Assembly: GCF_006345805.1 (NCBI RefSeq)
Contig: NW_021831972.1
Coordinates: forward strand, 1-33,809
Direction of reading: 5' to 3'
Source of the DNA: Octopus sinensis
Taxonomy: Eukaryota
DNA length: 33,809 nucleotides
The first letter of the stretch is position 1; each line of letters opens with the position of its first letter. The notes under the pieces are model-generated. The model was not told where the DNA came from, searched no databases, and saw nothing but the letters and a program-made list of their open reading frames with translations. This document shows, piece after piece, positions 6,863-19,853 of this stretch. The translations under genes and the position numbers were made by a program.

Positions 6863-7894
6863 GGACGTCGACGAGGAGTACCTGACCCGCCTGTTCGGGA
6901 CGACTTTCGGGCCAGGGCCCATGGACAACTTCCAGAGATCCCTGGCCTGGCAGTGCTACCGAGAAGCGCTACCCGTTCGGGATAAGCTCTACAGACACGG
7001 CTCGAGAAACACGGGGCCGACCTGCCCGAGATGCGGTCAGAGCGACGAAACCGTTCTGCACGCACTCGTGCAGTGTCCAACAATTTCCGACCTGTGGGCT
7101 TATGTCGAACAACTGCTGTCACGTGTGGGACGAGTCGGTTTATCAGCTGAGTCTATCGTCAATATTGTCACGCCTCCATCCTTCAAACGGGAAGGAAGAG
7201 CTATTTTCATCATCCTTGTGGCTATGGCGAAAGAATGTATCTGGTGGACGTGTTTGAAAGGATTGGAGACAAACACTTTCCTCTCTGGTCAATCTCTCAT
7301 CAACTTCTTCAAGTACCACTTGAAAAGGAAAGTGAGAGTAGAGAGGCAAGTTTTGTCTAGGGAATGTTTTAAAAAAAGATGGGTGAATGTAGCAAGGATG
7401 GCACGTATGAATGACGAAGCCACCTTGAGCATAATCCTATGAACCCAGAAATTGAAAACAGAGGGTTACCCACTTGCAAACAAATGTGGTAACATATAAC
7501 AATATTGACCAAGGTTACCGTGGTCTTTTGGTAGGCTTTTCTTCCCACGGATAAACCTTACTTGCTTTCCCCTTTACACCATATATCATAACACTGTGAT
7601 ACACGATCCCTATTGATCGTTTTTTTTCCTCTTCCCCCTTTTTCCCCTTTTTTCTTCTTTTTCATTTCTCTTTCCTTTTGTTCCTTTTCCTTTTCTTTTT
7701 TTTCTTTTTATTCCTTTTATTTTATTCAAATTTTTTTTTGTTCTTTTCTTCCCTTTTACGATCCCTCTTGATCGAAAACCTACGCCACCCCTTTTTTTTT
7801 CTTTTGTTTTTTGTTCTCTTCATCCCCCAAAAGAAAAGCTCTACCTTGTAACTTGTCCCATCTGTGTGCAGCCCTGTGTGGCCAATAAAGAAAC
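6863..7894 (+). mobile_element. 5'-truncated Tx1/L1-type LINE, copy 1 (ORF2 C-terminus + 3' UTR)
   Basis: Open frame to TGA at 7440-7442 with CCHC zinc knuckle CPRCGQSDETVLHALVQC preceded by W..Y.EALPV; pyrimidine-rich 3' UTR ending AATAAAGAAAC. Confidence 0.88.
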
Positions 7895-8181
7895 CTATCT
7901 ATCTATCTATCTATCTATCTATCTATCTATCTATCTATCTATCTATTATCTATCATCTATCTATCTATCTATCTATCTATCTATCTATATATCTATATAT
8001 CTATCTATCTATATATATATATATATATATATATATCTGTCCATCATCTATCTATCTATCTATCTATCTATCTATCTATCTATCTATCTATCTATCTTCT
8101 ATTATCTATCTATCTATCTATCTATCTATCTATCATCTATCTATCTATCTATCTATCTATCTATCTATCTATATCTATCTA
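7895..8181. repeat. (TCTA)n/(TA)n microsatellite between the two Tx1-like copies
   Basis: Direct reading. Confidence 0.97.
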
Positions 8182-9295
8182 CCGCGAGTGTCGCGTTGCT
8201 CTCAAGCAACTCTGCCGTCCTGGGTCGACCTTAAGTGACTTCAACACAACCAAAGCATTCTATAGGGGTTTAGTGGAGGGGAGGTACGACGACGAGCTCG
8301 GGGCGAACCTGGACGTCGACGAGGAGTACCTGACCCGCCTGTTCGGGACGACTTTCGGGCCAGGGCCCATGGACAACTTCCAGAGATCCCTGGCCTGGCA
8401 GTGCTACCGAGAAGCGCTACCCGTTCGGGATAAGCTCTACAGACACGGCTCGAGAAACACGGGGCCGACCTGCCCGAGATGCGGTCAGAGCGACGAAACC
8501 GTTCTGCACGCACTCGTTCAGTGTCCAACAATTTCCGACCTGTGGGCTTATGTCGAACAACTGCTGTCACGTGTGGGACGAGTCGGTTTATCAGCTGAGT
8601 CTATCGTCAATATTGTCACGCCTCCTTCCTTCAAACGGGAAGGAAGAGCTATTTTCATCATCCTTGTGGCTATGGCGAAAGAATGTATCTGGTGGACGCG
8701 TCTGAAAGGATTGGAGACAAACACTTTCCTCTCTGGTCAATCTCTCATCAACTTCTTCAAGTACCACTTGAAAAGGAAAGTGAGAGTAGAGAGGCAAGTT
8801 TTGTCTAGCGAATGTTTTAAAAAAAGATGGGTGAATGTAGCAAGAATGGCACGTATGAATGACGAAGCCACCTTGAGCATAGTCCTATGAACCCAGAAAT
8901 CGAAAACAGAGAGTTGCTTATTTGCAAAAAAAAAAAAAAAAAAAAAAGAAATAAAAGTGACTTCATTGACCGAGGTTACCGTGGTCTTTTCCGCAGGCTT
9001 TTCTTTCCACGGGTAAACCTCACCTGTCCTCCCCTTTACACTTCATATTGACATTTCTGTGATAACGATCCCTATTGATCATTTTTTTTTCCTCTCCCCC
9101 CCCTTTTTTTTTTTTTTTTTTTTTTAACCCCCCTTATTTTTGTCCTCTTTCTCTCCTTTTACGATCCCTTTTGATCGAACCTCCCCCTTTCTTTTTTTTC
9201 TTTTTTTTTTTTTTTTTTTTAATACCTTCAAAAGAAAAGCTCTACCTTGTAATTTGTTCTATCTGTGTGCAGCCCTGTGTGGCTAATAAAGAAAC
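8182..9295 (+). mobile_element. 5'-truncated Tx1/L1-type LINE, copy 2
   Basis: Frame open from 8183 to 8890; same zinc knuckle; 7 substitutions versus copy 1 over the 580 shared coding nt; same AATAAAGAAAC end. Confidence 0.88.
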
Positions 9296-9697
9296 ATATC
9301 TATCTATCTATCTATCTATCTGTCTCTCTGTCTGTCTGTCTGTCTGTCTGCCTATCTGTCTGTCTGTCTGTCCGTCCGTCTGTCTGTCTGTCTGTCTATC
9401 TATCTATCTATCTATCTATCTATCTATCTATCTATCCATCTATCTATCTATCTTTCTCTCTATCACCGATGAAAAGAGATATATACATATATATGCATGC
9501 ATATATATATATATGCATGCATATATATATATATATATATATATATATATATATATAGACATATATGTATGTATGCATGCATCATGCATGTATGTATGTA
9601 TGTATCTATGTATGTGTGCGTGCGTGTGTGTGTGTGTATGTGTGTGTGTGTGTATGTGTGTGTGTGTGTGTGTGTGTGTGTGTGTGTGTGTGTGTGT
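9296..9697. repeat. Compound (TCTA)n(TCTG)n(TA)n(TATG)n(TG)n microsatellite
   Basis: Direct reading. Confidence 0.95.
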
Positions 9698-9954
9698 AAC
9701 AATTGTCGTTATAACTATTGCAAGCAAAACCGCTATAAAATAACGTTAACATATGGTAAGCAATAATAAAGCCGCTATAAAACCGCCATAATAATTTTAT
9801 GTTTTCCTTATATACGGCTTAGAAAAGTGAGGTCTTCATGCCGTGGTAGCGGTGGGTAATTATGTGTGTGCGTACGGGAAGGTGGGGGATTGTTCAATGG
9901 GGAAATAATAAAAGCAATAATGAGAAGAGATAATCACGACGGCAATAAATGACT

Positions 9955-10175
9955 AAATAATAATAATAGTAACAACAACAACAATAATAATATAATAATA
10001 ATAATAATATAATAATAATAATAATAATAATAATAATAATAATAATAACAATAACAACAAAGACTAATAAGAAATGGTAGTTGTAGTGGTGATGATGATG
10101 GTGACAACGACGCTGATGATAATGACGACGACGATGACCACATGATGACGATGATGATGACCATGATGATAGTAT
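9955..10175. repeat. (AAT)n/(AAC)n/(GAT)n trinucleotide low-complexity tract
   Basis: Direct reading. Confidence 0.93.
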
Positions 10176-18105: not shown

Positions 18106-18414
18106 CAATGGTTCCCAAAATGGGCGGTATTGCCCCCCTGGGGCGGGGGAAAGTTCCGAGGGACGTTGAAGAAAAGTGGGGTGATAATAGGGTAGCAATT
18201 CATGTAAAATGCGGGGCGATAATGGGGTAGCAATTCATGCAAAAACAACGAAATAATGGGTTCGTTAGGTTAAGTTTTATTTGTGAAATACAGTTGCTTT
18301 GAATTTGCTTCAGAAAGAGGTCTATGTCTGTGATGGTTACTTGGGGTGGTAGGGGCTAGGAATATGACCTGGGTGTCAAGGAGGCGGCAGTCCCCAAAAT
18401 TTTGTGAACCACTG
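18106..18414. mobile_element. Non-autonomous hAT (Charlie-type) MITE
   Basis: TIRs CAATGGTTCCCAAA / TTTGTGAACCACTG; 8-bp flanks GTTTAGAC (18098-18105) and GCTTACAC (18415-18422), 6/8 identical; internal ~35-bp duplication at ~18178-18245. Confidence 0.8.
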
Positions 18415-19146
18415 GCTTACACTAACACACGCGCGCGCACGCATGTACGCACGCATATACACACATATACACACACACTCACACAAATACACACACATCA
18501 GTATCCTGAGCTCAAAACTCTCCTTCTTTCCATCTTTGCTAGTTCTCTTTCTTCTCCACTCTTCTCCCTTTCTCTTTCCCTTCCCCCTCTCTCTCACTCT
18601 CTCGCTCTTTCTACCTCTCCCCCTCTTTCACCCCTCTGCATCACTTTTCTTCTTTCTCACGATCACTCCTGCTCCTTCGTACTTAATCATACTGTAACTC
18701 AAATTGTCGTTCCACTTTCTGACCTTCTATCATACTCCCCAGCTTCCATTTTACACGAGGCCTACCATGTAAGCAGACCTCATATATATGATATCTTTTA
18801 GTTTTGCTTTTGTCTCAAGGTTCTCTTATTTCATAAAAGATATCCGAAACGTTATATTCTCTTATGTTTTTTCGAAGAGTTTGTTTATCTTCATTGCACA
18901 TTTCTTCCGCTGCCGCTTTTATTTCTGCACTTTTTCAGGTACATGTGTTGCTTGTGCGACTCGATGCATTATTTGCTTGTTTTCTTCATGTTTCACAAAT
19001 TATACTCTTGAAAACATATGCATGTATACATGTATGTATATATGTATGTATATATGTTTTATATGTATATATATATAAAACACACACACACACACACACC
19101 ACACATATATATATATATATATATATATATATATATATATATATAT

Positions 19147-19540
19147 AGGCGCAGGCTTGGCTGTGGGGTAAGGAGTTTACTTCCCACCATATTGTTGCAG
19201 GCTCAGTCCCACTGCGTGTCACTTCTACTATAGCCTCGGTCAAACCAAAGCCTTGTGAGTGCATTTGGTAGACGGAAACTGAAAGCCTGTCTTATATATA
19301 TGTGCGTGTGTATGTGTGTGAGTGTGTGTGTGTATGTGTGTGTTTGTCCCTCCGCCATCGCTTGACAAGCGATGTTGATGTGTTTACTTTTCCGAAACTT
19401 AGCTGTTCGGCAAAAGGGATCAGTAAAATAAGTACTAGGCTTACAAAAAACAAGTCCTATGGTCGATTTGTTAGATTGAGACCCTTTGCAGTGGTGCTTC
19501 AGCATGGCTGCTGTCAAATGACTGAAACAAATAAAAGAAT
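19147..19540 (+). mobile_element. SINE family A, full length
   Basis: Same head, internal (TG)n and tail as 140-512. Confidence 0.88.
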
Positions 19541-19650
19541 ATATTTATAAATATATATATATAATATATAATATATATATATATATATATATATCTATAT
19601 ATATATATATATATATATATATATATATATATATATATATATATATATTA

Positions 19651-19853
19651 TTTCTTTATTACCCACAAGGGGCTAAACACAGGGAGGACCAACGGATTAA
19701 GTCAATTACATCGACCCCAGTGCGTAACCGATACTTAATTTATCGACCCCGAAAGGATGAAAGGCAAAGCAACCTCGGCAGAATTTGAACCAGAACGTAA
19801 CGGCAGACGAAATACGGCTACGCATTTCGCCCGGCGTGCTAACGTTTGTGCCT
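19651..19853 (-). mobile_element. SINE family B monomer with Tx1-like tail (type 1), embedded in (TA)n
   Basis: Core CGACCCCGAAAGGATGAAAGGCAAAG; minus-strand end GTGTTTAGCCCCTTGTGGGTAATAAAGAAA. Confidence 0.85.

Follow-up and report, generated by a model that had tools for sequence, protein, structure and literature searches.

Can a short interspersed element (SINE) of an animal carry the tail of a long interspersed element (LINE) of the L1/Tx1 group and be moved by it? The question is raised by a stretch of 33,809 nucleotides (nt) of Octopus sinensis DNA (assembly GCF_006345805.1, contig NW_021831972.1, positions 1 to 33,809 of the forward strand; hereafter the window), in which a LINE family, here called Tx1A, and a subfamily of a SINE family, here called SINE B, end in the same motif of about 41 nt (tail 1). 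In other clades, a tail in common is established as the mark of a partner LINE (PMC3747384, PMC4176376). The tail-sharing principle itself is textbook knowledge; such a partnership has rarely been reported for the L1/Tx1 group. The homology of the two ends is well supported, a partnership is plausible and its mechanism is unproven. The favoured explanation, to which a probability of roughly 0.6 is given, is that a tail derived from the L1/Tx1 group was gained by template switching and serves trans-mobilisation of the SINE by a stringent partner.

The initial annotation had aligned the LINE end at 7853-7893 without gaps with two minus-strand SINE tails, at 11172-11132 (31 of 41 positions identical) and at 19682-19651 (26 of 32), and both alignments were reproduced exactly; extension of the latter to 19691 gives 31/41. 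A second Tx1A copy, which was absent from that annotation and ends at 9254-9294, is identical to the two SINE tails at 30/41 and 32/41 positions. For the controls, 1000 dinucleotide shuffles each of the 41-mer and the 32-mer were scanned on both strands of the whole window. The shuffle maxima were 28 for the 41-mer (0/1000 at 31) and 23 for the 32-mer, and pairwise shuffling gave 0/20000 in all three pairs, so that the match is significant against shuffled controls. After removal of the last 10 A-rich bases, identities of 23/31, 21/31 and 16/22 were left, as reached by 0, 1 and 2 of 20000 shuffles. When only the LINE ends were used to build a profile, it retrieved the SINE tails at E values of 9.7e-6 and 3.9e-4, and the reverse profile, built from the SINE tails, retrieved the LINE ends at 2.9e-6 and 4.9e-6. 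LINE and SINE terminate at the same base and identity is at background upstream of the approximately 41 nt; judged from these alignments, the co-terminal similarity of a stringent LINE-SINE pair is present.

The two SINE B copies with tail 1 (S1 and S2) were additionally compared with the LINE ends of the window, the cut-off for similarity being 30 of 1000 shuffles. Both match both Tx1A ends (scores 41-48, 0/1000 shuffles in 4/4 pairs), whereas the ends of an element of the restriction-like endonuclease (RLE) type and of an RTE-like LINE score 10-16 (229-984 of 1000 shuffles). These two clade labels are our presumption from motifs, and Pfam backs only the endonuclease and the reverse transcriptase (RT) of the RTE-like element. 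S2 also matches weakly the end of Tx1B, a second L1/Tx1-group family (16/1000 shuffles). Among the LINE ends in the window, the SINE tail is thus not matched better by a non-Tx1 LINE.

Tx1A is present in two copies, which follow each other in the same orientation within a single (TATC)n array (6761-9464) and would represent two separate insertions, since their 5′ ends differ. Copy 1 comprises the C-terminus of open reading frame (ORF) 2 with a zf-RVT domain (6864-7442), a pyrimidine-rich 3′ untranslated region (UTR) and the terminal tail; zf-RVT is carried by both truncated copies. The ORFs of the two copies are identical at 573/580 positions (98.8%), the family being young and nearly intact, and the 3′ UTRs at only 306/392 (78%; 22% different). 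Near-identical ORFs next to divergent UTRs indicate that UTR exchange occurs in the family; the contrast could stem from an exchange of UTRs among subfamilies or from gene conversion that was confined to the ORF. The protein encoded at 8183-8887 had 7 matches among 1261 candidates; its identity is 58% to an Argonauta hians protein (96% of the query covered) and 83% to a fragment within a model from Octopus bimaculoides (20% covered). Via P0003 (65% to the window protein, 44% to P0008) a full-length relative, P0008, was reached, which contains an apurinic/apyrimidinic (AP) endonuclease, an RT and a C-terminal zinc finger and for which L1 ORF2p is the closest solved structure (E 1e-72; R2, E 6e-29). 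By proxy through this relative, Tx1A can be assigned to the L1/Tx1 group. Its placement in the Tx1 clade proper is likely and draws on the repeat target and on presumed markers of the clade, namely an RT motif of the Tx1 type, a short ORF2 and a zinc-knuckle ORF1, which were looked for among the relatives. The RT motif DQSKAFD is found in 105/123 of them (human L1 has DAEKAFD), 25 full-length relatives have 1084-1161 amino acids, and at least three CCHC knuckles occur in 6 of the 240 fetched proteins, all of them distant relatives. No Tx1-named protein was among the relatives returned by protein searches and an atlas search. Two database records were noted in passing: P0007, a RhoGEF10-like gene model from O. 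bimaculoides that opens with a Tx1A-like peptide, is probably a mis-annotated LINE fragment, and P0005, a Tx1A relative recorded under a bacterial metagenome-assembled genome (1775-bp contig), is probably eukaryotic contamination.

SINE B is a SINE, being short, dispersed and non-coding and carrying target site duplications (TSDs). The window contains six copies in five insertions, with bodies that are 70-90% alike (S1 and S2, 88%); a TSD, of 16 bp, was found on one of the five insertions and is unreadable on the other four. Tail 1 is carried by two copies and a different tail (tail 2) by four: the three for which another tail had already been recorded, at 12118, 27192 and 30205, and a headless fourth at 11128-10964. 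One body thus bears alternative tails, the similarity of which to each other is marginal (24/1000 shuffles at best). For tail 2, no convincing partner was found in 20 comparisons of four copies with five LINE ends (best, 36/1000 shuffles). The tail 2 copy at 12275-12332 (+) folds into a clear hairpin (z -2.63); a common hairpin loop with reversed stems in tail 1 and tail 2 was considered and discarded, as only 1/4 tail-2 copies folds clearly in this way. In the SINE B head, boxes resembling the A and B boxes of RNA polymerase III (pol III) promoters are spaced by 53 nt. Against consensus boxes, three of the five heads score 14/16 (1, 6 and 7 of 400 shuffles) and the remaining two 13 and 12 (16 and 63 of 400). 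ARAGORN predicted 0 tRNA genes and Rfam gave no tRNA match at the gathering threshold or at E values up to 10, tests that decayed copies can fail. The core may resemble the Deu/Nin domain. Membership in MetaSINE was not borne out, the core being unlike the bivalve Meta domain by eye and its short motifs being absent from that domain. Very probably SINE B is already catalogued among the tRNA-derived SINEs of octopus; OK, OR1 and OR2 (tRNA-Core and tRNA-Deu classes of RepeatMasker, PMC8967140) are, like SINE B, abundant and of modular body.

S1 forms the 5′ half of a composite, the 3′ half and true terminus of which is the headless copy with tail 2. One 16-bp TSD surrounds both halves, a length reached by 0/1392 random flank pairs. 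A single TSD around a composite ending in tail 2 implies that the insertion was primed at tail 2, tail 1 being a passenger there; the composite displays tail exchange and gives no evidence of mobilisation via tail 1. The proposal that the 3′ terminus of SINE B is that of the Tx1-like LINE therefore holds for S2 and does not hold for the tail at 11172, which is internal. A solo, degraded insertion of the tail 1 type (25868-25823, 46 nt) lies in non-repetitive DNA within an 18-bp TSD of its own (1/1368 random pairs equally long). It scores equally with LINE tails and SINE tails, so that it may originate from either; its TSD indicates that a tail-1-type end truly serves as the terminus in retroposition, with no poly(A) and in DNA that is not a microsatellite. 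Poly(A) was found behind no copy of Tx1A, SINE B or the solo tail examined in the window, and a short A-rich run closes each of the three SINE end types of the window.

Outside the window, the 39-residue antisense translation of a tail-1 SINE was scanned against 1.84 billion proteins. Four matches were obtained, the best peptide agreeing at up to 81% over 52 residues in records that give only few flanking residues. In three of them (P0241, P0242 and P0244) tail 1 runs in frame into the SINE B core, which indicates that the tail-1 subfamily recurs outside the window; the fourth, P0243, is a repetitive protein with only 10 aligned residues and was put down to chance. In P0242 the tail-1 end directly adjoins another SINE B copy, with a junction unlike that of the window composite. 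A tail pattern and a core pattern each had 0 matches in genome contigs, and plasmids and phages gave none, collections that are without eukaryotic genomes.

On the LINE side, the degraded family Tx1B ends in a related motif, and its UTR does not align with the Tx1A UTR outside this end motif. As Tx1B is divergent, the motif would be old in these LINEs. A short tail-like segment at 15624-15681 follows the RLE-type LINE (13899-15599, which we presume to be Dong/R4-like) at a distance of about 25 nt, with a brief (ATA/ATC)n stretch in between. This segment is a single copy and probably a nested, truncated insertion in the repeat behind that LINE. The region 12520-15830 as a whole is a nested run of Tx1B with (ATC)n, the RLE-type LINE with (ATA)n and the Tx1B-type solo tail in (ATT)n.

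Under the favoured explanation, a pol III-type SINE body of head and core would have at least two exchangeable 3′ ends, and tail 1 would be the last ~41 nt, perhaps ~50 nt, of an L1/Tx1-group LINE. A template switch or recombination may have joined this tail to the body; the alignments show the homology, the route being conjectural. The tail would probably act as cis signal for the LINE ORF2 protein, and SINE RNA carrying it might be bound and, where the endonuclease has nicked the target, be reverse transcribed and integrated, leaving a long TSD and no poly(A). Later shuffling would have led to the composite at 10964-11362, with tail 1 internal and tail 2 as the end used. In favour of this explanation count the co-terminal match in both directions, its specificity for the Tx1A ends among the LINE ends of the window, the conserved last 60 nt of the two Tx1A copies, the related end of Tx1B, the recurrence of tail 1 behind the SINE core outside the window and the solo insertion with its own TSD. 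The initial annotation had suggested a Tx1-mobilised SINE produced by tail swapping. Of this, the homology, the L1/Tx1-group nature of the LINE and a visible tail exchange stand, the mobilisation is conjectural and Tx1A is lost as direct donor: at 4/41 tail positions S1 and S2 share differences from both Tx1A copies. With SINE bodies 88% alike and Tx1A young, the donor would be a relative of Tx1A, to all appearances a sister or ancestral family and not the Tx1A subfamily itself.

These four positions count against the favoured explanation, and several further results and limits do likewise. Tail 1 stands at the insertion end in only one of the two tail-1 SINEs of the window, namely S2, the TSD of which is unreadable in (TA)n. 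P0241, P0242 and P0244 all keep the SINE-type residue where the LINE differs. The conservation of the Tx1A terminus (56/60 identities in the last 60 nt of the UTR versus 250/332 in the remainder; Fisher p 0.001) is inflated by poly-T tracts, which hold part of the UTR divergence, and the last 60 nt of Tx1B match the end of Tx1A copy 1 (1/1000 shuffles) and fail the cut-off with the other, so that 1/2 copies pass. The specificity comparison covers five LINE ends within 34 kb. Folding predictions place a stem of 3-4 bp with a loop of 5-6 nt at corresponding positions of 4/4 tails (two LINE, two SINE), and in L2 elements it is such a loop that is recognised (PMC4176376); however, with z scores from -0.84 to 0.98, none of the tail-1 and Tx1 ends outperforms its shuffles in folding, and 0/10 stem pairs covary, with only four sequences compared. 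The predicted hairpin is thus treated as a lead. Finally, (TATC)n was found within 30 nt of 0/5 SINE B insertions and 0/2 solo tails.

The last result bears on an earlier suggestion, that the SINE had inherited microsatellite targeting from the LINE. (TATC)n stands on both sides of 2/2 Tx1A copies, both 5′ flanks end in TATCTA in the same repeat phase, and outside 6700-9500 this repeat makes up 0.6% of the window; Tx1A is a candidate (TATC)n-targeting family, both copies sharing one array. S2 does lie within (TA)n, as had been noted, with the repeat on both sides. Since the repeats differ, no SINE B insertion lies beside (TATC)n and (TA)n on both sides is also found in 2/6 copies of the unrelated SINE family A, inherited targeting is unsupported. 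An insertion signature shared with Tx1A was not seen, in a test that is weak because a single full SINE ends in tail 1.

The tail may also have come from an L1/Tx1-group LINE and be a passenger throughout, either because the enzyme sees only the A-rich end (relaxed recognition, as in mammalian L1) or because another LINE moves the SINEs. The composite with its internal tail 1, the A-rich finish of every SINE end type, the hairpin without covariation and the lack of a common target repeat are all what such a passenger would leave, and the crocodilian SINEU is assigned to Tx1-Mar although the two have no tail in common (PMC4494074). We nevertheless hold it unlikely, because the terminal block is conserved across LINE subfamilies and families, poly(A) follows no copy and the solo tail has a TSD of its own. 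Mere chance or convergence, in the form of a short GT-rich stretch with an AATAAA-like signal, could be invoked for a match that is short (41 nt), was picked post hoc and includes 10 A-rich nt; it is largely refuted by the window-wide shuffles at 31/41, by the significance that persists without the A-rich end and by the common last base, and is given hardly any weight.

The origin of the tail could also be a different one. If the motif were common to LINEs of several clades, the real donor might stand outside the L1/Tx1 group and be, for example, the RLE-type element, provided that the segment at 15624-15681 were its 3′ end. The closeness of this segment to the element and its resemblance to S2 (score 27, 1/1000 shuffles) fit such a donor, and one RLE-type copy was compared, among LINE families limited to the window. 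We consider it improbable, as (ATA/ATC)n splits the segment from the RLE-type UTR and the segment scores best with the Tx1B end (40, 0/1000), its score with S2 being below the 42-48 of S2 with Tx1A. A transfer in the reverse direction, in which the LINE family took its 3′ end from an abundant SINE, would draw on the UTR exchange in Tx1A and on the fact that the two SINE tails agree with each other (32/41) no better than with the LINE ends (30-32/41). It is rated a shade more improbable again, given that a related end exists in the divergent Tx1B, that 4/6 SINE B copies carry the other tail and that the block conserved in the LINE (~57 nt) extends beyond the part in common.

Beyond the favoured explanation of a tail 1 that serves trans-mobilisation, a wider reading may be offered tentatively, with the odds somewhat against it: octopod Tx1-like LINEs would practise stringent RNA recognition via a 3′ signal of ~40-60 nt across divergent families, each lending its signal to a SINE end of its own. 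It draws on tail 1, related to Tx1A, and on the Tx1B-type tail at 15624-15681 in an ATC/ATT repeat like that behind Tx1B. If true, it would amount to stringent recognition in an animal L1/Tx1 branch, would back stringency as the ancestral state of L1 and would provide a natural library of tail variants within one genome. A review has raised the question whether ancestral L1/Tx1 enzymes were specific for 3′ sequence and relaxed later in mammals, and a tail-sharing SINE with a young, nearly intact partner family would make it testable in an animal. The partner LINE would also be a candidate for the machinery behind some of the octopus SINE load, which in O. vulgaris amounts to 11.6% of the genome (PMC13282606).

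Known stringent pairs (UnaL2/UnaSINE1, ZfL2 and the CR1-, L2- and RTE-tailed SINEs; PMC3747384 Table 1, PMC4176376) consist, as here, of a SINE and a LINE with their last few tens of bases in common and have alternative tails on a body; the octopus case differs from them in its L1/Tx1-group partner and its weak hairpin without covariation support. Tx1 partners are absent from the table of 58 SINE/LINE pairs in PMC3747384, and the three L1 partners listed there all come from plants or algae. Of the L1-tailed SINEs, ZmSINE2 and ZmSINE3 with LINE1-1_ZM and SINEX-3_CR with L1-1_CR likewise have in common with the LINE a conserved L1-clade 3′ end of ~45-80 nt; they belong to green plants and algae, and the maize hairpin shows compensatory changes (PMC3747384), whereas the octopus pair is animal and Tx1-like. 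Crocodilian SINEU, thought like SINE B to be mobilised by Tx1-clade LINEs (Tx1-Mar), ends in poly(A), and the evidence there is a shared target, no Repbase LINE resembling the 3′ half of SINEU-1 in the account of PMC4494074; the case for the octopus pair is built on the tail, and a target common to both was not seen. Simple repeats flank the LINE on both sides in Kibi, Koshi and the crocodilian (TTCC)n/(TTTC)n Tx1 elements (according to PMC4494074), as in Tx1A, the repeat being a different one, (TATC)n for Tx1A and (ATC)n behind Tx1B. Within the available text of the open-licence literature, with Repbase, Dfam and SINEBase outside the scope, neither a tail-sharing Tx1 SINE nor a partner of an octopus SINE was found. 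A Repbase-wide comparison of SINEs with LINEs reported only pairs similar beyond the 3′ end (PMC5786205), and a pair with a Tx1 tail could therefore be on record unreported; the present pair may already stand in Repbase or Dfam. The features of the window are compiled in Table 1.

Table 1. Positions of the LINE, SINE and tail features in the 33,809-nt window
Feature	Position	Strand	Remarks
(TATC)n array	6761..6862		5′ of Tx1A copy 1
Tx1A copy 1 (L1/Tx1-group LINE family A)	6863..7893	+	5′-truncated; zf-RVT PF13966, E 4e-8
Terminal tail of Tx1A copy 1	7853..7893	+	41 nt, common with SINE tail 1
(TATC)n array	7895..8181		separates Tx1A copies 1 and 2
Tx1A copy 2	8182..9294	+	5′ truncation point unlike copy 1
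Terminal tail of Tx1A copy 2	9254..9294	+	38/41 versus copy 1
(TATC)n/(TGTC)n array	9297..9464		3′ of Tx1A copy 2
TSD of composite	10948..10963		16 bp; partner 11363-11378
Headless SINE B copy with tail 2	10964..11128	-	3′ half and true terminus of composite
SINE B copy S1	11132..11362	-	pol III A/B-like boxes in head; tail 1 at 11172-11132 behind core; 5′ half of composite
SINE B with tail 2	12125..12330	+	ends approximate
Tx1B, second L1/Tx1-group family	12520..13858	+	degraded, frameshifts and stops; related tail at end, then (ATC)n
Short tail-like segment	15624..15681	+	inside (ATT/ATC)n; Tx1B end closest
SINE B copy S2	19651..19855	-	terminal tail 1, 14-nt deletion ahead of tail; (TA)n on both sides
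Solo degraded tail-1-type insertion	25823..25868	-	18-bp TSD 25805-25822 / 25869-25886; non-repetitive DNA
SINE B with tail 2	27195..27365	+	ends approximate
SINE B with tail 2	30200..30372	-	ends approximate
SINE family A	137-509, 4815-5166, 19149-19539, 25448-25788, 27375-27764, 33057-33470		3′ end at 32357; often internal dinucleotide repeat

Between the SINE B core and a stretch in the body of SINE family A there is a weak similarity (12 and 58 of 1000 shuffles). Family A is presumably CORE-like; a search for the CORE motif stayed at chance level (6 versus 4.5 expected). Compared with the five LINE ends, family A ends gave just a weak A-rich match with Tx1B (5, 15 and 41 of 500 shuffles). 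A long LINE of another clade with AP endonuclease and RT, ending in (ATG)n, occupies 1172-4326; its endonuclease and RT lie in different frames, with open frames of 427 and 665 amino acids. The window is repeat-rich, with 78 tandem-repeat rows. A fragment of a hAT transposase dimerisation domain (PF05699, E 1.4e-11) was found at 22422-22754 on the minus strand. Inverted repeats with (TA)n centres, possibly similar to miniature inverted-repeat transposable elements, are located in 20075-20539, 21146-21487 and 29741-30153; among them, the inverted repeat 20196-20539 is 82% alike to 21487-21146, and palindromes are found at 20075-20205 and 29741-29952. A direct duplication links 28602-28917 and 29398-29721 (86%).

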